Virus record (IMG/VR): IMGVR_UViG_3300033143_001356
Span: 1-52,244 of that record
Origin: a virus
Taxonomy: Duplodnaviria; Caudoviricetes
Reading direction: 5' to 3' (one strand)
DNA: 52,244 nucleotides
Of this stretch, positions 13,626 to 38,601 are shown piece after piece. Position numbers and translations under genes: made by a program. Position 1 is the stretch's first letter; the number at the start of each line of letters is the position of its first letter. The notes under the pieces are model-generated. The model did no database searches, was not told the DNA's origin, and was given only the letters and a program-made list of their open reading frames with translations.

Positions 13626-13795
13626 TATTCAGTGAACTCCTGTGTAGTGCCTGTGCTGTTGTCGTCCAAAGGTATATCATCCTTAGAGTTTATGGTGAGT
13701 TTGTTACCTAACCCTATCCCATATCTCATAACAACTGCACCTGCTATAAAACCTATTAACATGCTAATCGGTACACATATCGTCAATATATTCAT
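13625..13795 (-). CDS. Small membrane protein following the terminase (56 aa)
   Basis: MNILTICVPISMLIGFIAGAVVMRYG...QEFTE*; its stop overlaps the tailspike start. Confidence 0.55.
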   Translation of the reverse strand: MNILTICVPISMLIGFIAGAVVMRYGIGLGNKLTINSKDDIPLDDNSTGTTQEFTE

Positions 13796-15446
13796 CATCT
13801 TCTAATCCCATGTCAACTACTCCAACCTTAGCTAAAGATTGAATATCATCTACTGGTTCGTCCGGTCCGCCTGTAAAGGCATACGAATACGCTGTTATCC
13901 CCTTCGGGCACCTCAAGTGTACCTGGAAGGCTATCATGGCTGCAAACAATAAATCGTCATGCTTGCCCGCCATGTGTATCGGTTTACCGCTCTTATCGTA
14001 ACAAAACGACATCATCTCGTTTATTATTTCATCAAAACCTACTATGAAACTCTTTTCTCTGAGTGCGGCACGGAAGTCGTCTACCAACCATTTCCTTGTC
14101 ACCATGTCCGTGCGCCAGCCAAGGTTCTCCGAATCCTGAATCGTCAACTGCTGGTCGTGAACCTGTCTGTTATAAATATTAGCGTAACCCTTTTCTTTGA
14201 ATATATTGAGCAGGGTCATACTATTAGGTATTTCAGGTGCTATGAAGGCATCATTATAGAGTTTCGCTGCGTAATACGCTTGCCAAGCAAGGTCAACTTG
14301 GTCGCCCCTACCTTGATAGATAGCCACATACTCACCTGCGTTGCGGTCGAATATCGCTATCCCGTCAGCGTCGAGATTACTCTTGGGGTCGTTCACATCC
14401 GAAAGCCTTGCTTCCATAGTATCTATACCCATAGCGTATTCGTGGTTATCGCAGGGCATCTGACGTATCTTCCAGCAGTTGAATGTCCTCTGTACGTCCT
14501 CGATATTGTCTTGAGTTAAAATACATCTTCTCGGTTCGCGGACGAACTGTTTCTGGTGGTTTATCATCGACTGCAAGAATACCGGATTACCTGAAGTCTG
14601 GAATGCCTCCATCGCTGTAGCGGGATATTCCTGTCTGAACAATGCCTCATCGCCACCTAACTCCTGAATCTTTAGTCTTCGCCAGTACACCTGTGCGTTT
14701 GTAAGATCGCATTCTTTCTGGACTATTCTTTCGTCCTCATCAGCAACGAATCCTTCTGGTGGTTCTGTAGTATATTCAAGAAACTTGTGCCACGGAAAGA
14801 ATATCGGCAGGTACCCTTCAAGGCTATCACCGCTTTTCTGTCTGTCAACCGCTTGCCAGTACATATCATAGAAAGCACCACCGACACCGTTAGCAGTAGT
14901 TTCTAATATCACTATGGTATCGGGGTTCTTAGGTACCATCTGTAAGACAGCAGCAAGACCCTCTTTAGCTTTCGGCCAGAACGCTACTTCCGAACCGTGA
15001 AAGAAATGTATGGTACCACCACGGCCAAGTACGTCCTTGCCTGCTGTTTGCGTTAGGAACTTGGAACCGTGGGGTGCGCGGTACCGTATCTCTTTTCTAT
15101 TACTTGCCTTTGTAGGTCGTCTACATTCTACAGGAAGATGAGACTGGAACGTGCGGGTCATATTAAATACCATATCCGTACTCTCGGTATCAGCCGATAC
15201 ACAGAGCGCAGTCCAGTTAGAACGGGAGTTTATTTCATAGAACGCTTCCGCTTCTGACCACGTTGACCACCCGACCTGACGAGGTTTCAAGAGTAGTATA
15301 CGGACAGGGAACCCAGCGGCTCGTTGTTTCTGAATGATACCCGCCAACATCAACTGCCCATCGTTAGGGCATAACGATACCAACTCACCGTTCTTATTGA
15401 TGATTTTAAGATTCTCGTCTATCCAGTTTATACTGGAGGTATTCAT
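13764..15446 (-). CDS. terL: Terminase large subunit
   Basis: ATPase motifs LKPRQVGWST, FHGSEVAFW and ETTANG; RNase H-like nuclease motifs GIDT and HDDLLFA. Confidence 0.92.
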   Translation of the reverse strand: MNTSSINWIDENLKIINKNGELVSLCPNDGQLMLAGIIQKQRAAGFPVRILLLKPRQVGWSTWSEAEAFYEINSRSNWTALCVSADTESTDMVFNMTRTFQSHLPVECRRPTKASNRKEIRYRAPHGSKFLTQTAGKDVLGRGGTIHFFHGSEVAFWPKAKEGLAAVLQMVPKNPDTIVILETTANGVGGAFYDMYWQAVDRQKSGDSLEGYLPIFFPWHKFLEYTTEPPEGFVADEDERIVQKECDLTNAQVYWRRLKIQELGGDEALFRQEYPATAMEAFQTSGNPVFLQSMINHQKQFVREPRRCILTQDNIEDVQRTFNCWKIRQMPCDNHEYAMGIDTMEARLSDVNDPKSNLDADGIAIFDRNAGEYVAIYQGRGDQVDLAWQAYYAAKLYNDAFIAPEIPNSMTLLNIFKEKGYANIYNRQVHDQQLTIQDSENLGWRTDMVTRKWLVDDFRAALREKSFIVGFDEIINEMMSFCYDKSGKPIHMAGKHDDLLFAAMIAFQVHLRCPKGITAYSYAFTGGPDEPVDDIQSLAKVGVVDMGLEDDEYIDDMCTD

Positions 15447-20690: not shown

Positions 20691-21178
20691 TATTCTATCC
20701 TTTTAATATATGTTGTTTCAAAGTGTTCAAAGCCAGTTTTCTCATATAGTCTGCACACGCTATCGTGCATGTCGCTGGCCAATTTACTTGCTGTCATTAA
20801 AAGACACTTACATCCTTTACTAACAGCCCAATACTGAGCCGCCCTTAGCAATCTAAGGGCACCAATGCCACTTCTCTTTTCAGGAACGATATACCAATAA
20901 TGCTCGTTGGCAAACAGTTCTGTGCCAAGTGGGTTAATGAAAGTCGTTAAACCCATGTACCCCGCTGGCGGATTTCCTAAAACCAACAAATCTTTTCCGT
21001 CTGAATCTATCATGTCTTGTAAGTCTTCCAAGTGTTTGTCTATTAACATCTCAAATCCATATTCATTATGTTCGTTCTGCCACGCTTCGGCAATGTGCCG
21101 TAAATCTTCTGCTTCCCCTGTATATATTTTAACCATTTTACTCCAATGGATTAAACTCCTGATTAGGTGTATTGTCAT
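20690..21178 (-). CDS. GNAT-fold virion assembly protein (T7 gp13/P22 gp14 position)
   Basis: E.YWYIVPEKRSG.GA.RLL and LYEKTGF GNAT motifs; lies between nozzle and ejection genes. The true start may be an internal Met. Confidence 0.75.
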   Translation of the reverse strand: MTIHLIRSLIHWSKMVKIYTGEAEDLRHIAEAWQNEHNEYGFEMLIDKHLEDLQDMIDSDGKDLLVLGNPPAGYMGLTTFINPLGTELFANEHYWYIVPEKRSGIGALRLLRAAQYWAVSKGCKCLLMTASKLASDMHDSVCRLYEKTGFEHFETTYIKRIE

Positions 21179-24496: not shown

Positions 24497-25087
24497 TTAT
24501 AACTCCTTAAATGCTTTCAAATATTCTTCTAAAGTATTAACACTAAACACCTCTCTTTCTTCTTCCATATCAACTCGATGAATCCTTAAATCTTCACCGT
24601 TATACAAATGTTCTTTTCCTCTCATCTTTTCTAACGCCTGAACAGTAACTACTTCTACGTCTATTCCTTCCTTTGTCGAAGAAGGCAGGGAATCGTGATG
24701 GTTATATGTGTACTCGGCACCGGACTCCAGATGTTCCTTTATTACATGGTTTATAATCGTCGATGTAACAAACGGACAATCTGCTGTAACCCTCACGATA
24801 TGGTCAGCATCACATATCTTAGCTGCGTTCCTTAGTTCGCCGGTCAAGTCTCTTTCGCCCGGCCATACAATAGCGGTTCCACACACAAACCTTGTCAAAT
24901 CATCGTCCGGCGTACAGACTATCGCTTGGTCAACGTCACTTTCTTCCATAGTACAAAGGACATATCCGACCATTGTAGTGCTGCCCATTGGAAGAACAGA
25001 CTTAGCCGGTAATCGCCTACTGCCCAATCTTGCATTTACTACTCCAAGTATCACATTGACCCCTTTGGAAAGAACCTTGCCGCACAA
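24497..25087 (-). CDS. SpsF/KdsB-like CMP-nonulosonate cytidylyltransferase
   Basis: ARLGSRRLPAKS, IVRVTADCP, G.DVEV and SVNTLEEY motifs of the SpsF/PseF/NeuA family. The true start is probably a few codons downstream. Confidence 0.85.
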   Translation of the reverse strand: MCGKVLSKGVNVILGVVNARLGSRRLPAKSVLPMGSTTMVGYVLCTMEESDVDQAIVCTPDDDLTRFVCGTAIVWPGERDLTGELRNAAKICDADHIVRVTADCPFVTSTIINHVIKEHLESGAEYTYNHHDSLPSSTKEGIDVEVVTVQALEKMRGKEHLYNGEDLRIHRVDMEEEREVFSVNTLEEYLKAFKEL

Positions 25088-26370
25088 TGCGGGCAGTATG
25101 TTTGTTTGCTCATAGCTTCCAATATCTGGACATTTCCTTTTGCTGCAATACAGATATTTTTCAGATATTCCTGGTTGACCATTGAGAACTTTCTCTTGCA
25201 GATACCACAGAAACCTTCAGTCAAGATTTTGGTTTGGTCTTTAACTACATTCAATGTGTCGTAATCCAAATGCGCCCTCGGCCAGCAATACTTGAACTTG
25301 CCCTTGACTCCGTTTATTTCCTTAGCAGCACGTTTGAAAGCATTGCCGTCCATTTTACCGTATCGGCCCGTCTCTAATTCCTTGATGGCTTTCTTGTCGG
25401 CGTTGGACTTATCTGCTTTTGTTATCGCAGTGGCCAGTTCGTTCAAGTCTTCAAACATAGGAGATACACGACTCAATGCACTGCCCGATTTAATCCACCA
25501 TCCACAAGAATACTTCTCATTAACATCGCAATACTGAAACGCCGGTTTATTCATGCAGTGCATTTCCATGCCCATCGTAGAACCGGAATGAACCAGAATA
25601 TCTGTGTTCACTAAGATGTCCGTTGCAGTCGATTCCGTATCAAGCGGTATTTTCATCTGGGCAAGAGCTTGTTTGTAAGGTTCAACCAAAACGCCTGGAT
25701 GAAGCGTAACTAAGATATTACATCCCAACCTTTGTTTGAGTCCGCCGATCATAGCTAAATACTTATTCCTGCCCTCAACTTCTTTTTGGACATTCACCAT
25801 TTCGTCAATACTCAGATCAGGGGCGGAATCACAGAACCCCCACGGCGAGGATATTGTCAGGATTTTCTTTTTCGGGTCAAAGCCCCATTTCTTACAGAAG
25901 TCTTTCTTAGACGTGAACTTGCTCCTGAATCCTTTCTGTTTGTAGATGTCTAACCCAAAAGCGCCAACGGCTATTGCCGGGAAACCTGATTTTCGTCTTT
26001 CAAGTATTTGAGCCTCGTCATCGCCCCAGACAAGTTCCTTGTCAATGTCATATCGCCACCGACCGAGAATATTCTGTTTGGTAGCTTCGTCGCCTTCCTT
26101 GAAATCCTTCCAGTCGCAGCTCGCTTCGGTGTGACGAGAAACGATACCTATACCAAAGTCTCTACATGTTTCCGCTAAATCCCTTGAGTAAGGGTTCCTT
26201 ATAGGTGGGAATACCACTACGTTCGGCTTGTAACTAAGAATAGCGTCACGACCTTGCCTTAGGCACGGCACAACTTTGACCTTGTTACCTAACAGTTCCA
26301 ATTCTTCTTTGATTAGGTTGTCAACCACTTCGTCCCTGTGGGGACTTGCTGATAAAATCAGTACCTTCAT
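25051..26370 (-). CDS. GT-B-fold surface carbohydrate biosynthesis protein; candidate nonulosonyl transferase
   Basis: N-terminal RD..D..I..EL...G, central LHP motif and D.LVH.GST...E.....KP, as in CMP/CDP-sugar GT-B transferases; C-terminal CxxC...CxxC. Confidence 0.6.
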   Translation of the reverse strand: MKVLILSASPHRDEVVDNLIKEELELLGNKVKVVPCLRQGRDAILSYKPNVVVFPPIRNPYSRDLAETCRDFGIGIVSRHTEASCDWKDFKEGDEATKQNILGRWRYDIDKELVWGDDEAQILERRKSGFPAIAVGAFGLDIYKQKGFRSKFTSKKDFCKKWGFDPKKKILTISSPWGFCDSAPDLSIDEMVNVQKEVEGRNKYLAMIGGLKQRLGCNILVTLHPGVLVEPYKQALAQMKIPLDTESTATDILVNTDILVHSGSTMGMEMHCMNKPAFQYCDVNEKYSCGWWIKSGSALSRVSPMFEDLNELATAITKADKSNADKKAIKELETGRYGKMDGNAFKRAAKEINGVKGKFKYCWPRAHLDYDTLNVVKDQTKILTEGFCGICKRKFSMVNQEYLKNICIAAKGNVQILEAMSKQTYCPHCAARFFPKGSM

Positions 26371-27168
26371 TTATTCTTCCTTTCTTAAAATTAGTCTCAC
26401 TTCAGTTCTTCCGCCAAAACCACGTTTGAATTTACTTATGTTAGCCAGCTTATCATCTCCGTATACCTGCTCGCCCATCTCGAATCGCTTACAGCCTATT
26501 CTCTTAGCTTTGAGTATCGCTTCCCACATAAGAGCATGACTGTCTACCGTAGAACAACCTGAAGCATAATAGGCGGCGTCTTTATTGTAGTACACTATCA
26601 ATCCTGCGTCAGTTACGACATTAGACGGTAACGGGTTATGAGGATGTAGAAAATGAGTCTGTGTCAAACAGAATGCCTGTCTCTGCCATATCATACGGTT
26701 TTGAATATCCCACGTCTCTTGTGGTCGGGTAACACCTCTAATCGACTCATGTAAACTCTGGTAAGCACCTGTATCGAACATTGTATTTACCATGATGTCT
26801 TTATTCACAAGCGACTTGTAACTCTTACGAAGTCCTCTGCGTAGCTTTTCAGTCGGTAAGGTCAAGTCGATAACCTGCGTATAGTACGGCGTAGCCTTAT
26901 GGCCTCTGGCCGATAGGAACCTGCTGATAGGCGAAAGACCGTCCATAAGAAAGTCCATGTAATATATGTCCTGAGACATACTCCATAGTCGCATTACATA
27001 CGCCATCGGATCAGGGCCGTGGTAAACCATAGGTCGCCAGTAGCCTGTTATCTTGCCGTCTTTTAGTGCCGCATGGCCATGAGGTTCATACGGTCCGCTC
27101 ATCGCTTGGTTGTACTCCCTGTCCAGCGGCGAATAAAGCGGCGTCAATTGAGAAATAGAGACTGTCAT
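26371..27168 (-). CDS. FemAB-related GNAT acyl/aminoacyl transferase
   Basis: IDLT......LRKSYKSLVN, YYASG, H.LMWEAI..AK..G...FE.G and FKRGFGG motifs. Confidence 0.8.
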   Translation of the reverse strand: MTVSISQLTPLYSPLDREYNQAMSGPYEPHGHAALKDGKITGYWRPMVYHGPDPMAYVMRLWSMSQDIYYMDFLMDGLSPISRFLSARGHKATPYYTQVIDLTLPTEKLRRGLRKSYKSLVNKDIMVNTMFDTGAYQSLHESIRGVTRPQETWDIQNRMIWQRQAFCLTQTHFLHPHNPLPSNVVTDAGLIVYYNKDAAYYASGCSTVDSHALMWEAILKAKRIGCKRFEMGEQVYGDDKLANISKFKRGFGGRTEVRLILRKEE

Positions 27169-27640
27169 AAAATTTTCCTTGCCATAACTTCCTGTTCGGT
27201 AATACGGCTGTTGAACCCTTATACTTATCTGCTATCTTTAACCAAAACTCTACTGCTTCGTTACAGTAATAGCATTCGCCGAAAACTGTCTTGAGGCCGA
27301 GATTGTCAAATGCTTCGTGCAACAGCATGTCAACAGCCTCTATACCATAACCCTTTCCCTGTAATGTTGGGTTGATTATAAGGCTAATCTCTCCCAACTT
27401 GTTCTCCCACTGGATATTAGTGATACCGCCCATACCCATAAGAATATCAATGTTATTCGTACAACAATAGTCATACTCTTTAATCAACCAATACCTGTGC
27501 TTATTCGTATCAAGATTTTTTAGGAACCTTGATTGGTCTACTTCCGTCAGGGGGTGTGGCGTTCTTAACGCTTGCAGGTTTTGGTTTCTCCACAGTCTTA
27601 TCGTCTGTAGGTCTGTCAGGTTCAGTGCTTCCAGCTTCAT
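27086..27640 (-). CDS. PseH/RimL-type GNAT N-acetyltransferase
   Basis: DL..IR.WRN, I.W.N..GEISL.I.P...GKGYG and AF..LGL motifs. Start placed at ATG 27640 behind a GGAG RBS. Confidence 0.82.
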   Translation of the reverse strand: MKLEALNLTDLQTIRLWRNQNLQALRTPHPLTEVDQSRFLKNLDTNKHRYWLIKEYDYCCTNNIDILMGMGGITNIQWENKLGEISLIINPTLQGKGYGIEAVDMLLHEAFDNLGLKTVFGECYYCNEAVEFWLKIADKYKGSTAVLPNRKLWQGKFYDSLYFSIDAALFAAGQGVQPSDERTV

Positions 27641-28889
27641 TTTTATTCTCCGGCAATCTAAAGGTTTCTTCGGGTACATCGCCTTTCAAGGCGTCCATCG
27701 GATTATCCCAATACTTTCGTACTATTTTCATAGCCGCTCTCATTGCGCCGATAGTTTCATCTATCACTCCCAACGTGTGAGAATATGATATAAACTGTGC
27801 ATAACCGAGAAGTACGCCACGATACAGACATTCCTGCCAGAACAAGGCTTTATGCTCCGGTGTGGGGAATATGAAGTAAGTTCTGGGTGCAAGGCCCTTC
27901 AGGTACACTTCGTCGCTCAATCCCATGCCATCAGTAATCGTCTTAAACAAACCCTTGAGACGGTCGCCCATCTTCCATATCTGGTCAATTACATTATGGG
28001 TTTGCATATACTCAATGGTTGCTATAGCAGCTGTGATTGAAGCTAACTCAGCACCAAAGGTAGACGATACAAAGCAGTCGCCCTGTAATACGTCCATCAT
28101 ATCCTTTTTGCCGCAGACACAACTGATAGGCATACCGTTTGCCATCGCCTTGCCTAAACACGTCAAGTCAGGTGTTACGCCGTAGTAGGCTTGTGCGCTA
28201 AACTTCTTAGTGCGGAAACCCGTTACAACTTCATCAAAGATAAGTACCGTTCCATTCTCTGAACATATCCGGCGAATGTCCTCAAGGAAGTTCTTGTCAG
28301 GTTCATCAAGGATATACGGTTCCATGATAACAGCAGCGATCTTGCACTCGTTTTTTGTACCCATCTTGGCTGTGAAGTCGTTAATGTCGTTGTAAGTAAA
28401 CTTCTCTATCGACTTTGTAAGGGCATCGGGTATACCGTCTTTCTTGTCGTTGACTATTGCGAACCAGTCATGCCAGCCGTGATAACCGCAACACAGAACT
28501 TTTGTTCTCTTGGTGTACGCCCTTGCGATCTTAACCGCTGCACTTGTCGCTTCGGAACCAGTCTTTACGAACCTCACCTTTTCGGCACTTGGGATAATAT
28601 CGCATATCTTTATCGCAAGTTCCGTTTCAAGTGGTGACGGTAGCGAGAAACACAAGCCCTTTGGCAGTTGGTTGCTTATCGCTCTGTTCACATATTCATG
28701 GGCATGACCTAAGATTATCGGGCCTAAACCTAATGGATAGTCTATGTACTTCTTATCACCTGACCATACATAAGCACCTTCGGCTCTGTCGATATACTTA
28801 GGGTAAACCCTGTTGACATGCTTACTCGGCATTTTACTTAACGTCTGCACTCCGTCGGGAATGTACTTTAATGTTTTGTTCCAATCCAT
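27510..28889 (-). CDS. Class III PLP aminotransferase (GSA-aminomutase-like sugar aminotransferase)
   Basis: KYIDY..GLG..ILGH, KTGSEAT..A, GYHGWHDW, LIFDEVVTGFR and PDL..GKAMANG motifs; GVQTLSK N-terminus typical of sugar-cluster homologues. Confidence 0.88.
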   Translation of the reverse strand: MDWNKTLKYIPDGVQTLSKMPSKHVNRVYPKYIDRAEGAYVWSGDKKYIDYPLGLGPIILGHAHEYVNRAISNQLPKGLCFSLPSPLETELAIKICDIIPSAEKVRFVKTGSEATSAAVKIARAYTKRTKVLCCGYHGWHDWFAIVNDKKDGIPDALTKSIEKFTYNDINDFTAKMGTKNECKIAAVIMEPYILDEPDKNFLEDIRRICSENGTVLIFDEVVTGFRTKKFSAQAYYGVTPDLTCLGKAMANGMPISCVCGKKDMMDVLQGDCFVSSTFGAELASITAAIATIEYMQTHNVIDQIWKMGDRLKGLFKTITDGMGLSDEVYLKGLAPRTYFIFPTPEHKALFWQECLYRGVLLGYAQFISYSHTLGVIDETIGAMRAAMKIVRKYWDNPMDALKGDVPEETFRLPENKNEAGSTEPDRPTDDKTVEKPKPASVKNATPPDGSRPIKVPKKS

Positions 28890-28900
28890 GTTCTTCCTTT

Positions 28901-29500
28901 CTAAAATTTCCTTGTATCAACTTCTTCGTTATGTTCAAACTTTTCCATCTTTACGAGATGGGCTACGTTATCTCTTAACTGGTCAACTGAATCAACGCCG
29001 ATTATTACCTTATCTATCCGTGGGTTCATCAGGACGAAATCTATACATTCTCTTGGACTGAAGTATTTCAGGGCTTTACCTTTACAGAAGATGGAACGGG
29101 CGATGATTCTTGGTGGTTCTGGCTCGATGTTAAAATGCAACAATTTTTTGTTCATAATAGAGTAGGGCAATTCCACATAGCGTGCCGACGTTGGGATTAT
29201 TTCTCCAGCCTCTTTTTGTATCGACAACCCTTCGTGGGTGACTTTTCGGTAATCTCCAAATTTATGAGCAAGTAATATGTCTTGGCCGTGGACAAAGAAA
29301 CCCGGCTTACTGCTTTTGTATATTCTATTGAATTGCCTTAATCCAATATGCCCTGTCCCATAAGCCGTGGCAACATCCAGCCATTCGATACCAACATCTT
29401 TCATGTATTCCATGATGAGTTGCTGTTGGGTTTCGTCTACACAATGGCCGTTATATTCACGGCCCCAGTTCGCTGTTCCTACTACTAATCGTTCAAGCAT
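28901..29500 (-). CDS. Shortened aldo/keto reductase
   Basis: L.VGTANWG..Y, LDVATAYG, ELPYSI, ARSIF..G and IIGVDS..QL motifs. Confidence 0.78.
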   Translation of the reverse strand: MLERLVVGTANWGREYNGHCVDETQQQLIMEYMKDVGIEWLDVATAYGTGHIGLRQFNRIYKSSKPGFFVHGQDILLAHKFGDYRKVTHEGLSIQKEAGEIIPTSARYVELPYSIMNKKLLHFNIEPEPPRIIARSIFCKGKALKYFSPRECIDFVLMNPRIDKVIIGVDSVDQLRDNVAHLVKMEKFEHNEEVDTRKF

Positions 29501-30405
29501 TGCTCCACCTTTCCAATAAATACTTCTTCATCCATTCGTTTAGCCTTATCCGAAGAGTAAGGTTTATCCCACGGATAATGGGCAGTACAATCCAAAGTAA
29601 CCATAGACACTTTCTCGCCGTCTTCCGAAACTAATGATTCGTGTATCTTCTCGCCCGGCCTTACACCGATAACCTCAAACTCACAGTCGGGAATAATGGC
29701 CCTCGCTACATCGGTTATCTTCATAGCCGGTGCGCGAGGGACCAATATCCAGCCACCCTTAGCCGTATTCAAACCCAACATTACAAGGTTTACCGCCTCT
29801 TCAAGCGTTATCCAGAACCTTGTCATGTCAGGGGAAGTAATTGGAACCTTTTTAATTCCCTGCTTTCTTAACTTGTAAAAGAGCGGTATTACAGAGCCAC
29901 GCGAACCTATAACATTTCCATACCGAGTAACTACAAATTCGGTTTTGTTATAAGCGTTTGCAGCGAGAAACAATTTCTCTGCGCACAGCTTCGTAGCCCC
30001 ATAAAGATTGACAGGATTAACCGCCTTGTCAGTCGAAACAAACACGCATTTTTCGACCCCATTGGCGTTACACGCACTAATAACATTCATGCTTCCCTGT
30101 ACATTAGTCTTTATTGCTTCTTCGGGGTTATACTCTAAAGCAGGAACTTGCTTTAACGCGGCGGCGTGAACAACATAATCCACACCAGACATAACCTGCA
30201 TTAACCTTTGTTCGTCCCTAACGTCGCCTAAAAAGTATCTCGGTTCGGGAAAGTCCTTTGCCATTTCTGACTGTTTGAACTCGTCCCTACTGAAAACGAT
30301 AACCTTTTCAGGCTTACTTTCGAGTATTCTCTTTATTAACTTTTTACCAAGTGACCCGGTACCGCCAGTCACTAACACTGTTTTTCCTAACAGGCTCGCA
30401 TCCAT
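29485..30405 (-). CDS. pseB: UDP-N-acetylglucosamine 4,6-dehydratase (inverting)
   Basis: VTGGTGSLG, SRDEFKQ, HAAALKQVPALEYNP, STDKAVNPVNLYGATK, RYGNVIGSRGSVIP, MTRFWITL and RPGEKIHE motifs. Confidence 0.92.
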   Translation of the reverse strand: MDASLLGKTVLVTGGTGSLGKKLIKRILESKPEKVIVFSRDEFKQSEMAKDFPEPRYFLGDVRDEQRLMQVMSGVDYVVHAAALKQVPALEYNPEEAIKTNVQGSMNVISACNANGVEKCVFVSTDKAVNPVNLYGATKLCAEKLFLAANAYNKTEFVVTRYGNVIGSRGSVIPLFYKLRKQGIKKVPITSPDMTRFWITLEEAVNLVMLGLNTAKGGWILVPRAPAMKITDVARAIIPDCEFEVIGVRPGEKIHESLVSEDGEKVSMVTLDCTAHYPWDKPYSSDKAKRMDEEVFIGKVEQCLND

Positions 30406-31205
30406 TTCCCTTCAATTTCCTTTCTTCTAAACCTTTTCTTACCGCCGTATTGGACCTTACCAATACTCTTCTCGGCGGCTCTTACTATCTCTGTCATCGC
30501 TGCAAACTGGACCGGCGTAAGAGCGAAACTCTCGTCCAGTCCACCGTTCACTTTGATGTGCTTCTCTAATACTGTTGCGCCTAACGTCATAGCGACGACC
30601 GGAACTACATAACCGGATGAATGGTCGCTCATGCCGACCTTACAGTTGAACTTTCTCAACTTCGCCATAGTTCTTAAATTCATCTTGGCAGGGTCAGCGG
30701 GATACTCACTGACACACCACAACAGAGTTATGTCCTTTGTGTACTTCTTGGCTGTCGTTATAGCCGTTTCGATCTCTTTGTATTCTGCCATACCTACCGA
30801 CATCAGTATCGGTTTCTTGGTCTTGGCTACAGTTTCAATTAACTCCAGCCACGGTAATTCAAAGGACGAAATCTTATATCGCTCTATTCCCATCTCTTCT
30901 GCGGTCTTTACCATGTCAGGATGGTACACCGTAGCGATGAATCCCATCTCTAACTGTTGACACAGTTTCTTTAGTTTAGGCACAAACTCTAAGGGCATTG
31001 CGGCTTTTTCATACAGTTCATACAATGTGTGTCCTGCCCACGGACCATCCTTGATTATCTTACCGCTTTCCAACGCCATCTGGTCAGGAGTGAACATCTG
31101 GACCTTGATAGTGTCTGCGCCTGCTTCCTGAGCGGCAAATACCAAATCCAGAGCCGTCTGGTAATCCTGATTATGACTCGCACCTATTTCAGCTATTATT
31201 TCCAT
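30387..31205 (-). CDS. pseI: NeuB-family nonulosonic acid synthase (PseI-like), lacking the C-terminal SAF/AFP domain
   Basis: IIAEIG..H, GAD.IK.Q, GPW.G.TLYELY, KISSFE, CVSEYPA, G.SDH and EKH motifs; ends shortly after FRR. Confidence 0.82.
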   Translation of the reverse strand: MEIIAEIGASHNQDYQTALDLVFAAQEAGADTIKVQMFTPDQMALESGKIIKDGPWAGHTLYELYEKAAMPLEFVPKLKKLCQQLEMGFIATVYHPDMVKTAEEMGIERYKISSFELPWLELIETVAKTKKPILMSVGMAEYKEIETAITTAKKYTKDITLLWCVSEYPADPAKMNLRTMAKLRKFNCKVGMSDHSSGYVVPVVAMTLGATVLEKHIKVNGGLDESFALTPVQFAAMTEIVRAAEKSIGKVQYGGKKRFRRKEIEGKWMRAC

Positions 31206-31518
31206 CTGCTCCTATCCTTACTGTTCCCGCAACCGTACACCCTCGCGGTATTTCTTTAAGGTCAACATTTTTCCAGTCATTATCAATCCATTTTTTTATA
31301 ACCGCCCATTCGTGGTCATGGCAATTATATACTTTGCATTCTCGCGGCCTCTGTTCACCCAAGGCGCATCCGCCATGCACCCAAAATCCATCCTTGTCTG
31401 ACCACAGATGTTTATTGTCTTCGGTTATGTACGAACCAAACTTTCTTGCGCAAGGCGAGCAACACCCCTTCAATGTCTGTATCGGACAATAACCGCTACA
31501 TTGGAATTCTTTATTCAT
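31189..31518 (-). CDS. Cys-rich hypothetical protein heading the sugar cluster (109 aa)
   Basis: MNKEFQCSGYC...GCC..C...GC.L...RP.EC..Y.C; the start overlaps the adaptor stop. Confidence 0.6.
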   Translation of the reverse strand: MNKEFQCSGYCPIQTLKGCCSPCARKFGSYITEDNKHLWSDKDGFWVHGGCALGEQRPRECKVYNCHDHEWAVIKKWIDNDWKNVDLKEIPRGCTVAGTVRIGADGNNS

Positions 31519-32191
31519 ACCAGTTCCCTGACCATTCGTGCATAGTATCATTTTGGCTTTTGTACTCTTCAAACCATTCAAAGAACTTTGCTCGCCATAT
31601 CGCTGCGTCAGTAGCTTTTTCTGCACCTATCGCAACGAAAGCCTGCCACACACCGTAGTCTATAAGTCCTTCGTCAGCGTCGTTCAGGCTTGAACTAAGG
31701 GCATCCGTTATATCAATCGGGTAAACACCTATATCGAATCTAAAGTCCTTGTCGCAATATTCCGTCAGACACAGCGGCATGACCTCAGCGTAATTCCCCC
31801 GACGAGTCCACGCGTTAGGTTGAATATGCGGTATATCGGTATGGGTCGGGTCGGGATACTGATTATCAAATTCGTCAATCGGAAGATAAGTCAACTTCCG
31901 CGTCAAATTACCGTCAAGATAAAATATATCGAATACATGAGCAGTCCTGTTGGATGTAGTTACATCGGATAATCCTGACGTGATCTCGGCCAAAGGCCAC
32001 CTTAACTGAACTGTCGTATCCAGAGACGTTGTGTTCTTGAACGTAAGTTCATGTAAGCCGGGAACTTTTTCGGCTATTATCCTCTGGGCTTCGTTTTGCC
32101 ATCGCGCACAACGCGCATCCGTAATAAGAACCGCATCATTAGTGCGTCCACACAACGCTTGTATTTCATCTGTTATTGCTGAACTTATCAT
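31511..32191 (-). CDS. Head-tail adaptor / tail tubular protein A-like
   Basis: ..W.NEAQR.IA N-terminal helix and L.DY..W.A C-terminal helix; located after the capsid genes. Confidence 0.7.
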   Translation of the reverse strand: MISSAITDEIQALCGRTNDAVLITDARCARWQNEAQRIIAEKVPGLHELTFKNTTSLDTTVQLRWPLAEITSGLSDVTTSNRTAHVFDIFYLDGNLTRKLTYLPIDEFDNQYPDPTHTDIPHIQPNAWTRRGNYAEVMPLCLTEYCDKDFRFDIGVYPIDITDALSSSLNDADEGLIDYGVWQAFVAIGAEKATDAAIWRAKFFEWFEEYKSQNDTMHEWSGNWYE

Positions 32192-32205
32192 ATTTTGCCC
32201 CAATC

Positions 32206-32577: not shown

Positions 32578-33228
32578 TTAGGCCGAAACCGTAGTTGCTA
32601 TTCCACAAATACCTTCAAACGATGCGTCGCCAACACCGAGAACAAGATGGCTTGTATCTACCACAGGTTGTATATGGTTCCATGCCGTCGCAGTATTAGT
32701 CAGATCGAAGTCCAATGTAGTGATGTCTACATGGGGACAAACGCCGCCACACCAGAACCAACTCCATTGATACGCAAGGGTAGTTCCATCAACATCTACG
32801 CCGGGATTACACCCTATGGCAATCATGCCCGTAGATGTCGCATCCATACAAGCACTTGTATTAGACACGATATACGGACAATCAGAAGCCTCGGAGTAAT
32901 GGCCAATGTCAATCCATGCTGAAGAATCAAAGTGACCACAAATCGGCCTTGCATCTGAACTTTGGTCTGCGGCACTGGATAACGGGAACGAACCGGACAT
33001 TTCATTAAAGGCCAGATAAATCATTGTGTATGGCCCTTGAACAGATGACGCATCCGCCCCAGTCTGGAACGCCTGAATCTTTGTCATTGGTGGATACTTC
33101 GGTGCGGTTACGCACGAATGTCCCGCAGAAGTAGAATCAAAGCCACCCGAAGGTATGCCAAGATTGGGGTTAGGATAACCCGGCCATCTGTCTGCTAAAA
33201 TAATTTTTCTTAGGCTTAAATTTGCCAT
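32578..33228 (-). CDS. Putative capsid decoration/cement protein, paralogue 2
   Basis: Colinear similarity to 33244..33918 (D.WPG.PN.NLGIP.GGFD, TKIQ, YTM.Y, FW..GVCP). Confidence 0.65.
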   Translation of the reverse strand: MANLSLRKIILADRWPGYPNPNLGIPSGGFDSTSAGHSCVTAPKYPPMTKIQAFQTGADASSVQGPYTMIYLAFNEMSGSFPLSSAADQSSDARPICGHFDSSAWIDIGHYSEASDCPYIVSNTSACMDATSTGMIAIGCNPGVDVDGTTLAYQWSWFWCGGVCPHVDITTLDFDLTNTATAWNHIQPVVDTSHLVLGVGDASFEGICGIATTVSA

Positions 33229-33243
33229 AACAATACTCCTTTC

Positions 33244-33918
33244 TTACGCGTCAGTTGCAAATGAGTAACCGCAAACGTTATTGGAAAGATCGGCTGCGCC
33301 ATCAAGCTCTAAAACACTTGTGTCTGCTTGTGGATAAATAGGTTCGCCAGCAGCAACATTTCCGCCAGTTGACATATCAACGCCTGCATGAGCAACACCA
33401 CTAAGCATAGTACAGTCCATAGGACACACACCGTCTATCCAGAAGAAACCGTACCCGCCATGATTGTCGCCATCAGTAGTCACATCTCTGTAAGAGAGTG
33501 TACCGCAGGCAATACCCATTTGGCCGGTAACAGTAGCGTCGTGAATACCCGCACCTAATGTCGCTAAATTAGACACAGTGAAGGCATTGCTTGTACCATC
33601 CGCCGAAAGACATGTTGAACTACACATGTGTCCAAAGACAGCCATTCCCAGCAAAGACAAATCTGCTTTTTCCACACCAATAGGTGTGCCATTGTTTACA
33701 GACTGACAATAGTACCTGCTATACATCATTGTGTAATAACCTGTTACGCCGGAGAAATCCTGATAGACTTGGATTTTAGTCCCGACCGGAAACTGCTCCG
33801 TAGAGGAGTCAGTCCACTTTGTTGCGTCAAAGCCGCCCTTGGGAATTCCGAGGTTATGATTCGGAGTGCCGGGCCACTTATCTTGTAATACTAAGTCTCT
33901 GGTACTTACTGCTACCAT
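33244..33918 (-). CDS. Putative capsid decoration/cement protein, paralogue 1
   Basis: Directly after the capsid gene; ends ...CGYSFATDA, as cement-type proteins often do. Confidence 0.65.
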   Translation of the reverse strand: MVAVSTRDLVLQDKWPGTPNHNLGIPKGGFDATKWTDSSTEQFPVGTKIQVYQDFSGVTGYYTMMYSRYYCQSVNNGTPIGVEKADLSLLGMAVFGHMCSSTCLSADGTSNAFTVSNLATLGAGIHDATVTGQMGIACGTLSYRDVTTDGDNHGGYGFFWIDGVCPMDCTMLSGVAHAGVDMSTGGNVAAGEPIYPQADTSVLELDGAADLSNNVCGYSFATDA

Positions 33919-33953: not shown

Positions 33954-34985
33954 TTACGAAACATTATTTAACCACAAACTCCCGTTGGGTTTCCAGCACA
34001 TGAAGTTACCGGAGATCAGGATTCTTGACAGCCACATATCGTAGCCGTTAGAGTTCTTGCCCTGCCATTCAAAGTCTGTCATCTTGAAGTTTCTGGCAGT
34101 ATGGAACCTGAGTTCCCAATGTTCGAGGTTGAGGATAAATACCCAGTTTCTCATCGTTGAAGTAGTCTGGAGATAAGGAACGCTCACGATTGTATGTTTG
34201 TCGAGTTCCATCTTGTTAAAGCCTTGTTTCTGCTTGTCGCCAGTTGGATGATACTGAACCTTACCTTCCATCTCTGCTCTTAGTTTATTGAACAGAGTAG
34301 GACACATACAAATATAAAGGTCTCTCGGAGTCTTCATGTGATGAGATACGTCGGTTTCCGTAATCCATTTACGAAGGTTTGATATTGTAATATTATATGC
34401 GGTCGCCTGTGCGCTTGAGGTCGTATTGACGTTCAAGCCAGCCGGGTCCGCACCCTGCCACCAGTCATTTGTTCCGCCCGACCAACTTCTTGTCAGTGTA
34501 CCATAGGTAACATCATGGTCAAGTGCAGATACTAACGACTGGAACTGTGTTGCGCCGTCTGCTACGCCTGTCTCAGAGCCTACGTTGAATATTTTCTTGT
34601 TCAGCCACAAGCGAGTAGCATTATGGCCCTTAGAGACCAACTGGTCTGCAAGGTCAAGCAACTGCTCTTCTGTACCTGCAAGGATATTCTGTGTATACTC
34701 TTCAAGGCCATACCTGAGAGGCAACTGGGCATACTTCCAGAGGAACCTTGGTTTCTCAAGCGTGTCCTTTGCTTCGTCAGTCAGCGCGGTGTTAGGCGTG
34801 TATTCCTGCATCAAATCGTCGATTTCATCGGTATCTACCAGACGCTCTACATACTTACCACCTGAGTAGGTAATCTGGTTCCGACTCTGTAACGCTTCGA
34901 CTACAGGCGTCGCCATATATACTTCGTCCACCTTAGAACGTAGAAACAGTTCTCTGGTGGCGTTTGATAAATCGTTCAAAGCCAT
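33954..34985 (-). CDS. Major capsid protein (HK97 fold)
   Basis: 343 aa after the scaffold; L...T.......D.V....P, GG..., F.WK and LLD motifs typical of podoviral capsid proteins. Confidence 0.82.
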   Translation of the reverse strand: MALNDLSNATRELFLRSKVDEVYMATPVVEALQSRNQITYSGGKYVERLVDTDEIDDLMQEYTPNTALTDEAKDTLEKPRFLWKYAQLPLRYGLEEYTQNILAGTEEQLLDLADQLVSKGHNATRLWLNKKIFNVGSETGVADGATQFQSLVSALDHDVTYGTLTRSWSGGTNDWWQGADPAGLNVNTTSSAQATAYNITISNLRKWITETDVSHHMKTPRDLYICMCPTLFNKLRAEMEGKVQYHPTGDKQKQGFNKMELDKHTIVSVPYLQTTSTMRNWVFILNLEHWELRFHTARNFKMTDFEWQGKNSNGYDMWLSRILISGNFMCWKPNGSLWLNNVS

Positions 34986-35787: not shown

Positions 35788-36036
35788 TTAGCCCTTTGGC
35801 TGCTTCGATTGCACTTCTTCCAGTTTTATTTTAAGCGCATGTATATTACGCTTTACTCTCGCACTTGCAGGTCCGCCCTGAGTATTGTGGAACGCTGCCT
35901 CTAATTTTACTATTTCATCCCGAATAGCTTTCGTCGGGTCAATTTTTTTCGGTAATGGTTTGTTTGAAACCGTCTTTGCTTGTTTCTGTACTTTTTTCTT
36001 TGGTGATTTCCGTTTTAATTTCTGTACCTTTTTCAT
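35788..36036 (-). CDS. Small basic protein overlapping the portal 3' end
   Basis: AAGGA RBS before ATG 36036; Lys-rich. Confidence 0.5.
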   Translation of the reverse strand: MKKVQKLKRKSPKKKVQKQAKTVSNKPLPKKIDPTKAIRDEIVKLEAAFHNTQGGPASARVKRNIHALKIKLEEVQSKQPKG

Positions 36037-38014
36037 TGTTATCCTTTGCTTGTAAAGCGATACTATTCTCTACTTTCTGCCGAACACCCTCAACGAGAAT
36101 CCTCACACCCTCATCGGGCGTAATCTTTCCTTCGGCAACCATTGTGTAAAGTTCCTGGAACTGCATCCAGTCCTGCCATATCGAACTTTCACTCAACAAC
36201 TTCTTCCAGTTCGGTACCTCCAGCGCTTTAAGTATCTCCGGCAACATTGGATTGGGAGGCGCACTCATTAACTCATATGCCTTCATTAGTTTCACTAATC
36301 TCTTTTCAGAGTCCATCGGTATCGCAGGTGCCGGCTGAATATCAACGTCAAATTTTACCAGAGACATCTCTTGAGTGATCTGCATAACACCAGCAGATTT
36401 ATCTTCTCCGACTATTCGCACCCATCTTTCGGGTTCGTAGTTCGCCTGACATATTTCAGCTACCAATTCACAGCACTTTCGCACCCATTCCGTTTCATAA
36501 ACATTCTGTAAAGCTATCCTGTCGTGAGACGATATAGCGAGATAACTCGACTCTGTGGCGGTAATATTGTTTCCAGCCTTGCCCTGAGCGACATCCTGAA
36601 GACCTAAGAGGTTCTTGAATTCCTGTGTAAAGAGTCCGTAAAGCTGAAGTGCCGCCGCTGATGGAGTAACAGGATTTACAATTTGAACCCTCTTGCCGCT
36701 AATAGCTCCCTTTACCACCCTAATTATCGACCCTGCCGCCTTACCTATACGGAAATGTTCCTTACTTCTGCCTGGAGGTGTATCAATCGCACCTTTTTCG
36801 ACTATTATCTTCGGGTCGCCGAACATCTTCATGTTATTGGTCAAATGAGACACAGTGACATTTATCATGTCCTGTACATTCTTGTATAACGTAACACCGT
36901 TGATTCCTTGCCACATGAACGGTAAGAGGTAATGAGGGGTTACAACAAAAGGCCAACGTGAATACGGGTACTTCTGGTCGTCAGGATTAAGAATAAGGTC
37001 GTCAACGTGGATGACATACCGCCCCGTTGGATAATCAGGCTCTTTCCATTCTTTTAGAGTTCGCGTAGGCCATTCATCGAGCGGGACGGTTGTGCCATTT
37101 TTATCATAAAATACCTCATCTTGTTCGTATACCTCGCCTGCGTCCATCAACTCTTGCGGAGGAATGTCCTCTTCTGTCTTCTGGTCGGTTTCTGAATAGT
37201 CTTTGAAGTAAGTCTCGTTCAGTTTGACGAACTCAGTGTCGTCGTTCACCTCAACGTCAGACATTTTATCGGCGTCAAGGACTCTGTCAAGGATATAGTT
37301 AGTTGAATCTGCGCCTAACCCTTTGTCTATCCCGCCTTTGCCTTCGTTTGGATAAGTACCGGCAGAGGCAAGCTGGCCCCTGATGGTAGTATCACCACCT
37401 GCGACCAAATCCTTGTATTTGCTGGCTTTGTCGGCGAGTTGTTTCTTGTATTTCGACCATCGGGACTGTGCCCACTCCAGCGGAACATATCTTTCGGTAC
37501 CGCAATCGCCGTTTTCTATCTTTTCGTCGTCAGAAGCCCAGAATTCGGCGGGATGCCACAACTTATGCTGGGTGTCGCCCATCCAAACCTTTTGTTTGTC
37601 ATCCCAAGTACATCTACCGTCCCAGAAAATCTTACTCACACGGTACCCGAATATCTTCCCGCACAGGATAGCCTGAATCTGTTCAAGGCGCATACCTGTT
37701 TTGTTCAATCCCTTTTCCCATTGCCACTGGAGATTGCTCTGCCATGCCTCGGCAGCGACGGAATCATTGTCCTCCCACGGCAAGCAGTGAATCTCGCTGA
37801 AATTCTTGCTCAATTTGGCGATCTCCTGCATTGCAGACGGCCAGATATAGTTTATAACTATCCAGTCCCATTCTTTATGCTCTTTCTTATGTGCAAGCTG
37901 GTCGCCGAAGAAGTACCGCAATGATTCCTGCCACATAGTGACCCATTTTTTTGTTTTAGCCATGCCAGCATCCTCTTTTCTTTTAAGGAGCTGTATGAAT
38001 TCGTCATGTTTCAT
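35939..38014 (-). CDS. Portal protein (P22 gp1-like)
   Basis: 691 aa; W....RYF.GDQ, INYI, PFV, QD.IN, G..DV.QG, TAT and FDV.I motifs. Confidence 0.88.
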   Translation of the reverse strand: MKHDEFIQLLKRKEDAGMAKTKKWVTMWQESLRYFFGDQLAHKKEHKEWDWIVINYIWPSAMQEIAKLSKNFSEIHCLPWEDNDSVAAEAWQSNLQWQWEKGLNKTGMRLEQIQAILCGKIFGYRVSKIFWDGRCTWDDKQKVWMGDTQHKLWHPAEFWASDDEKIENGDCGTERYVPLEWAQSRWSKYKKQLADKASKYKDLVAGGDTTIRGQLASAGTYPNEGKGGIDKGLGADSTNYILDRVLDADKMSDVEVNDDTEFVKLNETYFKDYSETDQKTEEDIPPQELMDAGEVYEQDEVFYDKNGTTVPLDEWPTRTLKEWKEPDYPTGRYVIHVDDLILNPDDQKYPYSRWPFVVTPHYLLPFMWQGINGVTLYKNVQDMINVTVSHLTNNMKMFGDPKIIVEKGAIDTPPGRSKEHFRIGKAAGSIIRVVKGAISGKRVQIVNPVTPSAAALQLYGLFTQEFKNLLGLQDVAQGKAGNNITATESSYLAISSHDRIALQNVYETEWVRKCCELVAEICQANYEPERWVRIVGEDKSAGVMQITQEMSLVKFDVDIQPAPAIPMDSEKRLVKLMKAYELMSAPPNPMLPEILKALEVPNWKKLLSESSIWQDWMQFQELYTMVAEGKITPDEGVRILVEGVRQKVENSIALQAKDNNEKGTEIKTEITKEKSTETSKDGFKQTITEKN

Positions 38015-38601
38015 ATAAATAAATTCTCGTAAACCATTTTAATTAGTTCAAAAAACTCCGACTGCGACAAATCAGATTTGGCTCGGTTGCAGTATTTACA
38101 ACAAGATACAACATTTTCAGCAATATATCCTTTTTTGCTATCTACTCTATCAACTCCGTTGTAAACATACTCTCCTTTGCGTCGGGGATGTCTCAGGATA
38201 GCAAACGGAGGCCGACCGCAATAATAACAATCACCTTTTGTTAATTTACGAAACTCAATTTTGTTTATCGCAAAAATCAACCCACGGTCTTTTGCTGTAT
38301 GCTGGTATTGGCTATATAAATGGTTAAACACAGATTCGCCAACTGCCAATTCTTTATTGTTCGGCCTGCCCCGCAAACAACCGCAAGACCTTTTGTGTCC
38401 GTTTCGTAGTTGGCTTGTTTTTGCCGTTGTTATTTGCCCACATTCACATCGGCACAACCATAACCGCTGGTTATCCTTGCCTTCTGTTCGCTCAATAACA
38501 ACCAATTTGCCAAACTTTCTGGCAAACATTGTTTCGGGTGTGCCATAAACCCCCGCATCCTCTGTATGTTTGAGCAGTGTCATAGATTTTTCGTTTGTCA
38601 T
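38011..38601 (-). CDS. HNH homing endonuclease
   Basis: FGKLVV...WLCRCECG...SCGC N-terminus; CYYCG...NGVDRVDS.KGY...NVV.CC..CN..K nuclease domain. Confidence 0.82.
   Translation of the reverse strand: MTNEKSMTLLKHTEDAGVYGTPETMFARKFGKLVVIERTEGKDNQRLWLCRCECGQITTAKTSQLRNGHKRSCGCLRGRPNNKELAVGESVFNHLYSQYQHTAKDRGLIFAINKIEFRKLTKGDCYYCGRPPFAILRHPRRKGEYVYNGVDRVDSKKGYIAENVVSCCKYCNRAKSDLSQSEFFELIKMVYENLFI

Follow-up and report, generated by a model that had tools for sequence, protein, structure and literature searches.

Nonulosonic acid genes within the virion operon of a podophage clade: a candidate system for glycosylating the phage particle

We analyzed a tailed-phage record from IMG/VR (Duplodnaviria, Caudoviricetes; IMGVR_UViG_3300033143_001356), which we used at its full length of 52,244 bp (hereafter the window), and delineated in it a block of nine tightly packed genes on the minus strand, at 24497-31518, that most likely directs the synthesis and activation of a nonulosonic acid, a bacterial sugar resembling sialic acid. 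The block lies inside the structural genes, between a head-tail adaptor gene of the SU10 type and a fibre-like gene followed by the tail nozzle gene. Glycosylation of the virion itself is the leading reading of this arrangement; it is drawn from the position of the genes and from the lifestyle of the phage, and we give it close to an even chance, if slightly less.

In the direction of transcription, the block consists of a Cys-rich lead gene and genes for a synthase, a PseB-type dehydratase, an aldo/keto reductase (AKR)-like protein, an aminotransferase, a GNAT protein, a FemAB-like protein, a protein of GT-B fold, and a cytidylyltransferase (Table 1). A preliminary description, made from the DNA letters alone, had named these eight enzyme families and the lead gene in this place, order, and strand, and family profile searches bore this out; the SU10_adaptor and nozzle profiles did the same for the position inside the morphogenesis operon. 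The two junctions given there are exact. Upstream, the ATG of the Cys-rich gene at 31518 overlaps the adaptor stop codon by 8 nt, and downstream, the fibre-like gene starts 1 nt after the cytidylyltransferase stop codon. With the most plausible starts, every gene of the block overlaps its neighbor or lies at most 11 nt away from it, the GTG start of the cytidylyltransferase, for instance, overlapping the GT-B stop codon by 4 nt. The GC content inside the block equals that of the rest of the genome. This arrangement suggests that the nine genes form one translationally coupled block in the late (virion) operon. Between 20000 and 39000, we found 33 promoter-like sites (34.1 expected) and 22 terminator-like sites (15.2 +/- 4.2 expected); these counts are at chance level and speak neither for nor against the earlier observation that the block has no internal promoter or terminator.

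Searches with the GT-B protein and the synthase yielded five viral contigs with the same gene order, and the family profile of the GT-B protein yielded three genome-bin contigs that plainly come from the same kind of phage. To avoid circularity, we used the nozzle, which is not a cluster gene, as the search anchor, and 11 loci were returned. One of them (L019) has no upstream DNA; the other ten all carry cluster genes directly upstream of the fibre and nozzle genes, so that the synteny in other viral contigs, proposed as a check in the preliminary description, was found wherever it could be seen. Seven of these loci, including L003, were examined directly and three via L005 and L002 (the same contigs) and L007 (a contig of equal size); L017 and L018 are nearly identical to each other. 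Beyond the loci found by way of the nozzle, the contigs L008 and L009, from bins of metagenome-assembled genomes, show this gene order too. Glycosylation-type genes hence lie within the structural operon in the window and in all 10 informative relatives.

Identity to the window goes down to 45-50% for the nozzle and to 27-60% for the cluster proteins. Seven genes are always present where the contig covers the place, encoding the synthase, PseB, the aminotransferase, the GNAT, FemAB-like, and GT-B proteins, and the cytidylyltransferase. The Cys-rich gene is accessory and not universal (L006 and L017/L018 lack it, and L008, L010, and L013 have two copies), and the AKR-like gene is missing in L014. 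More distant relatives have extra genes in the block, for an AAA_33 kinase, a PIG-L deacetylase, a formyltransferase-like protein, and an RNA ligase. The RNA ligase gene lies inside the cluster of L007, and L009 holds the PIG-L deacetylase and formyltransferase-like genes. In a quick phylogenetic tree, 12 phage aminotransferases form one group with respect to 80 bacterial homologs, the best 80 of at least 596 (Shimodaira-Hasegawa-like approximate likelihood ratio test, SH-aLRT, 98).

The cluster has long been fixed in this phage clade and is no recent insertion. Because of the synteny in the relatives, the invariant catalytic residues described below, and the single aminotransferase group, the sequences argue for one old acquisition that was kept under selection as part of the structural module. 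The record is a metagenome assembly, in which host DNA might be misjoined to phage DNA, but we regard such a chimera, or a recent bacterial insert, as extremely improbable. Both junctions are spanned in L005, L008, L009, L010, L013, and L017/L018, which are independent contigs from many assemblies, and L014, starting inside the adaptor gene, keeps the same order. Moreover, the composition is uniform across the window, the starts and stops of the cluster overlap those of structural genes, and the aminotransferases of the phages group by themselves. Three of the relatives come from bins labeled Planctomycetota and one from a bin labeled Thermodesulfovibrionales, the binning of phage contigs being unreliable.

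Table 1 Genes of the nine-gene block and of the structural module in the window, listed by position (aa, amino acids)
Feature	Position	Strand	Assignment and remarks
Large terminase	13764..15446	minus	within the structural block, alongside several large proteins
Tail nozzle, 720 aa	21335..23497	minus	phrog_3287 virion structural protein, E 7.7e-26
Fibre-like structural protein, 332 aa	23497..24495	minus	downstream neighbor of the cluster
SpsF-like cytidylyltransferase	24497..25087	minus	PF02348 CTP_transf_3, E 1.7e-13; likely GTG start 25054
GT-B fold protein, 439 aa	25051..26370	minus	C-terminal zinc ribbon; candidate transferase for the nonulosonic acid activated with cytidine monophosphate (CMP-nonulosonate)
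FemAB-family (GNAT-fold) protein	26371..27168	minus	TIGR04421 FemAB_IMCC1989, E 1.2e-13; likely start 27102
GNAT N-acyltransferase	27086..27679	minus	PF13302 Acetyltransf_3, E 1.4e-13; likely start 27640
Class III (GSA-aminomutase-like) aminotransferase, pyridoxal phosphate (PLP)-dependent	27510..28889	minus	PF00202, E 9.7e-49; NF004856, 326.6 bits
Truncated AKR-like protein, 199 aa	28901..29500	minus	PF00248, E 2.4e-7; uncertain role
PseB-type inverting 4,6-dehydratase of UDP-N-acetylglucosamine (UDP-GlcNAc)	29485..30405	minus	TIGR03589, 391.7 bits (cut-off 407.75)
Short NeuB-family nonulosonic acid synthase, PseI-like, 272 aa	30387..31205	minus	PF03102, E 6.3e-65
Cys-rich lead gene, 109 aa	31189..31518	minus	probably metal-binding; accessory
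Head-tail adaptor (SU10-type)	31511..32203	minus	PF24175 SU10_adaptor, E 1.4e-6, 29.3 bits (cut-off 27); upstream structural neighbor of the cluster
Major head protein	33954..34985	minus	phrog_9953
Portal	35939..38014	minus	P22_portal, 66.4 bits (cut-off 26.1)

Predicted synthesis and activation of the sugar

Dead catalytic sites, which the preliminary description had named as a sign against its reading, were not found; the key residues are invariant across 10-12 orthologs of 30-80% identity. The synthase fits PseI best among the NCBIfam models (TIGR03586, 257.3 bits with a cut-off of 340.25, versus 197.5 for NeuB). It covers positions 4-267 of the 327 of this profile, and the C-terminal SAF domain is absent from it and from its orthologs. 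Its best PDB match is a pseudaminic acid synthase (8h2c, E 2.4e-43), and the histidines H195 and H216 of the SDH and EKH motifs, which are metal ligands, as well as K34, K111, and E116, are invariant in 10 orthologs. The dehydratase is of the PseB type, its score lying just below the cut-off because the last ~45 profile positions are unmatched; on the LegB model it scores 63.6 bits. The best PDB match is FlaA1 of Helicobacter pylori (2gn4, E 3.8e-92), and T125-D126-K127, Y135, and K139 (YxxxK) are invariant in 11 orthologs. These dehydratase and synthase families indicate a sugar of the L-glycero-L-manno (pseudaminic) series rather than legionaminic or neuraminic acid.

The activating enzyme matches CTP_transf_3 with 51.3 bits (cut-off 22.6) and is not PseF, the model of which (TIGR03584) gives 17.7 bits with a cut-off of 205.7. 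Its nearest solved relative is 6oew (E 1.1e-14), and its nucleotide loop (R-x-x-S-x-R-x-x-x-K; R20, S23, R25, K29) is invariant in 11 orthologs. SpsF is the cytidylyltransferase of the legionaminic acid pathway of Bacillus subtilis, in which placing the sugar on the spore surface depends on this enzyme (PMC7439481). By analogy, the role of a CMP-nonulosonate synthetase is reasonable for the SpsF-like enzyme of the window.

D219 of the aminotransferase and its PLP lysine, K247, do not vary among 12 orthologs. This protein also has a 40-aa Lys/Pro-rich C-terminal tail (27510-27679) that has no counterpart in solved relatives; the codons of the tail overlap the GNAT start by 131-170 nt in another frame, which is unusually long for this operon. 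For the GNAT protein, the generic family match is clear and that to PseH weak (TIGR03585, 30.5 bits with a cut-off of 93.1). The FemAB-like protein reaches 51 bits on TIGR04421, with a cut-off of 250, and 39 of its residues are invariant in 12 orthologs; it is a candidate aminoacyl or acyl transferase. The AKR-like protein matches PF00248 over profile positions 1-84 of 291 only, and 186 aa of its Atlas model align to AKRs of 290 aa with a template modeling (TM) score of 0.79, corresponding to two thirds of the barrel. The Cys-rich protein has no match in Pfam, PHROGs, or NCBIfam; eight cysteines are invariant in 7 orthologs, and in the ESM Atlas, clusters of the CxxCxxCC/YkgJ type came up as weak leads only (score 0.88-0.92, TM no higher than 0.46). 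Judged from this, the protein is probably metal-binding.

Compared with the known enzyme set, this is not a canonical pathway for pseudaminic acid (Pse). The preliminary description had listed PseB, PseH, PseI, and a CMP-synthetase as core steps of Pse synthesis. PseB is present; the PseI-like synthase is short and scores under the cut-off of its model, the match to PseH is weak, the candidate CMP-synthetase is SpsF-like and not PseF, and neither a DegT-type PseC nor PseG is present. We scanned 77 of the 87 open reading frames (ORFs) called in the window (85 plus two overlapping ones) against Pfam and PHROGs, the remaining 10 all being shorter than 67 aa. No match to the DegT family, the type of PseC, was obtained among the 77, and the class III aminotransferase is present instead. 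No PseG model matches any cluster protein at an E-value of up to 0.01, and the sole GT-B protein of the cluster belongs to another branch than PseG.

The class III aminotransferase has many bacterial homologs at ~40% identity. Of the 47 tabulated bacterial loci of at least 14 kb, 43 hold an SpsF-like cytidylyltransferase beside it and 45 a NeuB-like synthase, so it appears to belong to a widespread, uncharacterized nonulosonate module. Two of the bacterial loci (L024, L052) hold true PseB and PseC in the same neighborhood. Because of this co-occurrence, the class III enzyme is perhaps accessory and not a substitute for PseC, and it may make or modify a substituent. As it is the only aminotransferase in the phage, either it would also perform the C4 amination, or PseC would come from the host. 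From the aminotransferase, the FemAB-like protein, and the tailoring genes that vary among the relatives, we predict a pseudaminic-type acid with non-acetyl N-substituents; the exact structure of the sugar cannot be derived from sequence.

The bacterial cassette (L020-L099) comprises the SpsF-like cytidylyltransferase, the class III (PRK06209-type) aminotransferase, an SDR protein, and a short NeuB-like synthase, for example in L027 (6127-11178) and L049 (3688-11109), and at least 596 matches were obtained in species genomes. A GT-B protein of the epimerase/TagF-like kind is additionally encoded in L027, and in Hymenobacter the transketolase genes are split. The product of this cassette appears to be uncharacterized. 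We discarded a role of the phage block in DNA modification, since a nonulosonic acid is what the families of the synthase, dehydratase, and cytidylyltransferase indicate and since the replication genes lie elsewhere.

The GT-B protein and the destination of the sugar

The preliminary description had also ascribed transfer of the sugar to the block. The GT-B fold of the protein in question was confirmed, and it may act either as a transferase or as a UDP-sugar hydrolase or epimerase. Its AlphaFold2 model is confident (predicted local distance difference test, pLDDT, 88.4). There is no Pfam match at an E-value of up to 0.01, and on PF04464 (TagB/F) the protein of the window scores 14.1 bits with a cut-off of 22.1, which two homologs pass (P0017, 31.6; P0110, 28.8). 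The best family is NF046086 (BFO_1060), aligned end to end over positions 3-362 of 365 with an E-value of 1.5e-23, the score of 83.5 bits being far under the curated cut-off of 200; second comes TIGR04396, "surface carbohydrate biosynthesis protein" (E 1.2e-16). A PDB profile search gave TagF as the sole match (E 0.004). H224-P225, R79-H80-T81-E82, and the cysteines C388, C391, C426, and C429 are invariant in 41 homologs. The family is small, with 109 clusters at 50% identity (E at most 0.001) among 1.84 billion representatives; many members are on contigs of ~50 kb, and the C-terminal four-cysteine zinc ribbon is common to the family. In distant relatives, the gene immediately upstream of GT-B encodes the AAA_33 kinase (L007, 9267-9731; L008, 9524-9991), and in some database proteins (P0105, P0123) the kinase is fused to GT-B.

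BFO_1060 is the counterpart, in Tannerella forsythia strain 92A2, of the TagB-like Tanf_01245, which is genetically required to add the terminal Pse5Am7Gra to the O-glycan of this bacterium (PMC5420450). According to the profile matches, the phage protein is a distant relative of this Pse transferase and of TagB/F, and we consider it fairly probable that it acts as a transferase.

In the mechanism that we propose, PseB would turn UDP-GlcNAc into a 4-keto-6-deoxy intermediate, from which an aminotransferase and the GNAT and/or FemAB-like acyltransferases would produce a 2,4-diamino-2,4,6-trideoxyhexose with at least one non-standard N-acyl group. The short PseI-like synthase would use this product and phosphoenolpyruvate to make a pseudaminic-type nonulosonic acid, which the SpsF-like enzyme would activate with CTP. 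Finally, the TagB/BFO_1060-like GT-B protein would transfer the sugar, most likely to a phage structural protein or to a glycan on one. With sugar and virion proteins produced in the same cytoplasm at the same time, the released particles would bear an acidic, sialic-acid-like coat. From the genes, we infer the order of the steps, the exact sugar, the transferase role of GT-B, and the virion as acceptor.

We favor the virion as the destination because the block is coupled to the adaptor and fibre genes, because its place is kept through deep divergence, and because lysogeny genes were not found in the scanned ORFs. A precedent is a further reason: phage glycosyltransferases encoded in a structural operon reportedly glycosylate the particles of mycobacteriophages. 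Stated in full, the proposal is that a whole deep-branching clade of uncultured podophages may have, fixed among its tail-assembly genes as a core component, its own pathway for a modified pseudaminic-type sugar and a zinc-ribbon, TagB-like transferase with which it coats the particle (fibre, nozzle, or head surface); we put it forward tentatively, as somewhat short of an even chance.

Several observations weigh against this proposal. No striking Ser/Thr-rich acceptor tract was seen in 41 proteins, the best 30-aa stretches reaching 0.33-0.47, and the cluster holds a single glycosyltransferase. No UDP-sugar hydrolase can be assigned unless GT-B is one, in which case no transferase would be left. 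In the fold search, transferases and epimerases tie for the GT-B model, and such a search cannot separate them. Tanf_01245 adds Pse to the N-acetylmannosaminuronic acid (ManNAcA) sugar of a preassembled glycan and not to a protein side chain (PMC5420450), so modifying the virion would call for a further glycan or for a changed specificity toward the acceptor. In B. subtilis, legionaminic acid is transferred without any need for the TagB-like SpsB (PMC7439481). HP and D/E-D/E-G are motifs of bacterial sialyltransferases (PMC5420450), and [DE][DE]G does not occur in the GT-B protein of the window, at most 8 of the 41 homologs holding one at any single column.

The acceptor could be a glycan of the host instead. 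The GT-B protein would then cap lipopolysaccharide, capsule, S-layer, or a flagellar intermediate during infection, which might hide the receptors of infected cells and of debris or prevent superinfection. One glycosyltransferase suffices if the acceptor glycan is made by the host; the sole characterized relative acts on an intermediate of a cell-surface O-glycan (PMC5420450), the second-best family bears surface carbohydrates in its name, and phage-borne enzymes that alter nonulosonic acids of the host capsule are known in Acinetobacter (PMC12053666, PMC6586298). Nevertheless, we consider this destination rather unlikely. No integrase was detected in the 77 scanned ORFs, in line with the preliminary description, and no other lysogeny module was found among them. 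The block lies inside the late structural operon in every relative and not in an early or moron region, and a change of the surface that begins late in the lytic cycle has little time to act. Furthermore, searches of Pfam, NCBIfam, and PHROGs revealed no flippase, polymerase, or other envelope-export gene in the cluster or among the extra genes of the relatives, transmembrane segments not being part of these searches.

A third possibility is that GT-B is the missing UDP-sugar hydrolase, a non-orthologous analog of PseG or NeuC. The cluster would then encode a complete six-step CMP-nonulosonate pathway with two tailoring enzymes and no transferase, and its product would be used by host transferases or by a phage enzyme encoded elsewhere. 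With GT-B in this role, a protein of suitable fold would be available for each canonical step (PseB, aminotransferase, GNAT, GT-B hydrolase, synthase, cytidylyltransferase). In the fold search, UDP-GlcNAc 2-epimerase ranks first for GT-B (Z 20.4), followed by the TagF-like domain of a capsule polymerase (19.7), TarL (19.3), TagF (18.6; root-mean-square deviation 4.3, 311 aligned residues), and NeuC (18.6), and the D/E-D/E-G motif is absent, as stated. The bacterial cassette in L027, the one such locus annotated at the GT-B position, adjoins a GT-B protein that matches Epimerase_2 (26.6 bits) and Glyphos_transf (23.2 bits). Nonetheless, we judge it improbable that the cluster merely supplies the activated sugar to other enzymes, with GT-B as the hydrolase. 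No phage member of the GT-B family that was examined matches the epimerase model, whereas two members pass the TagB/F cut-off; the BFO_1060 model aligns over its full length, the PDB profile search yields TagF only, and PseG-like MurG folds score lower (Z 13.5). PseG and Maf folds are not among the matches listed in the fold search, which excludes neither. To our knowledge, the conserved C-terminal zinc ribbon has no counterpart in known hydrolases, which counts against this possibility as well.

If the sugar is indeed placed on the particle, sialic-acid-like sugars would be displayed by tailed phages as they are by other organisms, and the phages would have a pathway of their own for this. 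No coat of this kind has so far been described in a tailed phage, and it would bear on the resistance of phage particles to proteases, on their escape from adhesion to debris and from trapping by their own receptors, and on their interaction with grazers, mucus, and immune lectins. The transferase family would be distinct from the Maf-type enzymes of flagellin glycosylation. With only nine genes, the block would then be a compact cassette by which a modified nonulosonic acid is both made and attached, with an unusual aminotransferase, a FemAB-like acyl/aminoacyl transferase, and a member of a little-studied TagB-like transferase family. Even if the sugar went to the host surface, it would be unusual for the late operon of a virulent phage to contain an entire sugar pathway.

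The viral record and its structural genes

The record belongs to the IMG/VR class with direct terminal repeats and is complete according to CheckV; we confirmed an exact repeat of 114 bp at both ends. A search of the window for transfer RNA genes found none. From ~9.5 to 40 kb, nearly all genes are encoded by the minus strand in a single long structural block, which contains portal, adaptor, and nozzle genes of the type in SU10/P22-like podophages. No match to integrase or recombinase families was found among the scanned ORFs (Pfam, PHROGs), the closest being a 54-aa HTH_17/excisionase-like protein. The gene content suggests a virulent-looking podophage, in which no lysogeny genes were found. 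The 50,697 deposited phage records that were searched contain nothing matching the portal, the GT-B protein, or the structural region of 20 kb, and only three distant NeuB-like matches, so there is no cultured relative that could be used as a model.

The adaptor is kept in the relatives at 32-79% identity. The preliminary description had spoken of tail fibre and nozzle genes. The nozzle was confirmed, as a profile of 5 orthologs matches the solved nozzle proteins 8zkk (E 3.6e-10) and 8zkm (E ~4e-10). For the 332-aa protein, the fibre label is only plausible. There is no family match beyond two PHROGs of unknown function, and the model, with a regular 6-residue beta repeat, is poor (pLDDT 48.6); in 7 orthologs, the N-terminal ~170 aa are conserved, whereas the repeat region behind them differs in length and the C-terminal end varies.

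Some neighboring genes deserve mention. In the relatives L010 (10001-12889) and L002 (5580-8366), the nozzle is a continuous ORF of 962 aa, in which ~245 aa are inserted in frame close to the C-terminus; the 720-aa nozzle of the window does not have this insert. A second GNAT acetyltransferase is encoded in the tail module (20690-21178, minus strand; phrog_1249, E 1.2e-14), between a small nozzle-associated gene and the next structural gene; no homolog was detected at this place in the relatives. Directly after the major head gene, two paralogous proteins of ~220 aa are encoded on the minus strand (32578-33228 and 33244-33918), which are ~32% identical, have no family match, and occur in three copies in L006. 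They may decorate the head, and they are candidate glycan acceptors. Four nuclease genes of the HNH or endonuclease-VII type (38011-38601, 44882-45337, 48530-49000, 51366-51716) include one directly upstream of the portal gene and one of the AP2-HNH type.

Comparison with known systems

With the CMP-pseudaminic acid pathway of Campylobacter and Helicobacter (PseB/C/H/G/I/F), known from islands for the glycosylation of flagellin or the cell surface, the phage block shares a PseB-type dehydratase with intact catalytic residues, a PseI-like synthase, a GNAT protein that weakly resembles PseH, and the CTP-dependent activation step. It differs in having neither a DegT-type PseC nor PseG, an SpsF-like enzyme instead of PseF, and a synthase without SAF domain, in the additional class III aminotransferase, truncated AKR-like, and FemAB-like proteins, and in being encoded by a phage, within the virion operon.

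A parallel in gene position is offered by mycobacteriophages, for which Freeman et al. 2023 reportedly described phage-encoded glycosyltransferases in the structural operon that glycosylate the virions. As in the window, the genes are said to be encoded by the phage inside the structural operon and are presumably expressed late. The mycobacteriophage enzymes reportedly use nucleotide sugars of the host, whereas here the phage encodes the synthesis and activation of a nine-carbon acidic sugar. Mycobacteriophages are also of another lineage and host range, and the modification of the virion was reportedly demonstrated there by experiment, while here it is proposed from the genes alone.

The transferases for Pse or legionaminic acid (Leg) derivatives of T. 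forsythia (Tanf_01245/BFO_1060 and TFUB4_00887; PMC5420450) resemble the phage GT-B protein in their GT-B/TagB-like type, the HP motif, their length (445 aa versus 439 aa in the phage), and the location of their genes beside those for nonulosonic acid synthesis. The phage protein, by contrast, scores 83.5 bits on the family model with its cut-off of 200, lacks D/E-D/E-G, and has the four-cysteine zinc ribbon. The Tannerella enzyme caps the ManNAcA of a cell-surface O-glycan (PMC5420450), whereas the acceptor in the phage is putative. In the sps operon of B. subtilis, genes for an SpsF-type cytidylyltransferase, a NeuB-like synthase, and a TagB-like glycosyltransferase are clustered as well, and the sugar, legionaminic acid of the spore crust, decorates a proteinaceous shell that is built in the mother-cell cytoplasm (PMC7439481). 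That operon is bacterial and not viral, follows a Leg-type and not a Pse-type pathway with the DegT aminotransferase SpsC and with SpsG, and its SpsB was shown to be unneeded for Leg transfer (PMC7439481).

Phage genes acting on pseudaminic or legionaminic acids are also known from Acinetobacter baumannii prophages, with epaA/epaB and with O-acetyltransferases (PMC12053666, PMC6586298). There, temperate phages contribute individual tailoring enzymes by which the capsule of the host is changed, in contrast to the full synthesis block found here in a genome in which no integrase was detected. A particle of a prokaryotic virus that displays a nonulosonic acid has been described in the haloarchaeal virus HRPV-1, whose spike protein VP4 carries 5-N-formyl-legionaminic acid (PMC6137143, citing Kandiba et al. 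2012). In this case, the sugar and the N-glycosylation machinery come from the host and there is no viral pathway, and the virus is an enveloped archaeal virus and not a tailed phage. With this host-made sugar as a caveat, the statement in the preliminary description that no phage system for placing nonulosonic acids on the virion has been described agrees with the literature searched. A phage-encoded nonulosonic acid pathway tied to virion genes was not found in full-text literature, supplementary files excluded, and in one review, pseI appears only in a table footnote on phage auxiliary genes (PMC6359870). What is particular to the system in the window is the combination of clade-wide fixation between adaptor and fibre genes, a zinc-ribbon, TagB/BFO_1060-like transferase candidate, and a non-canonical enzyme set.

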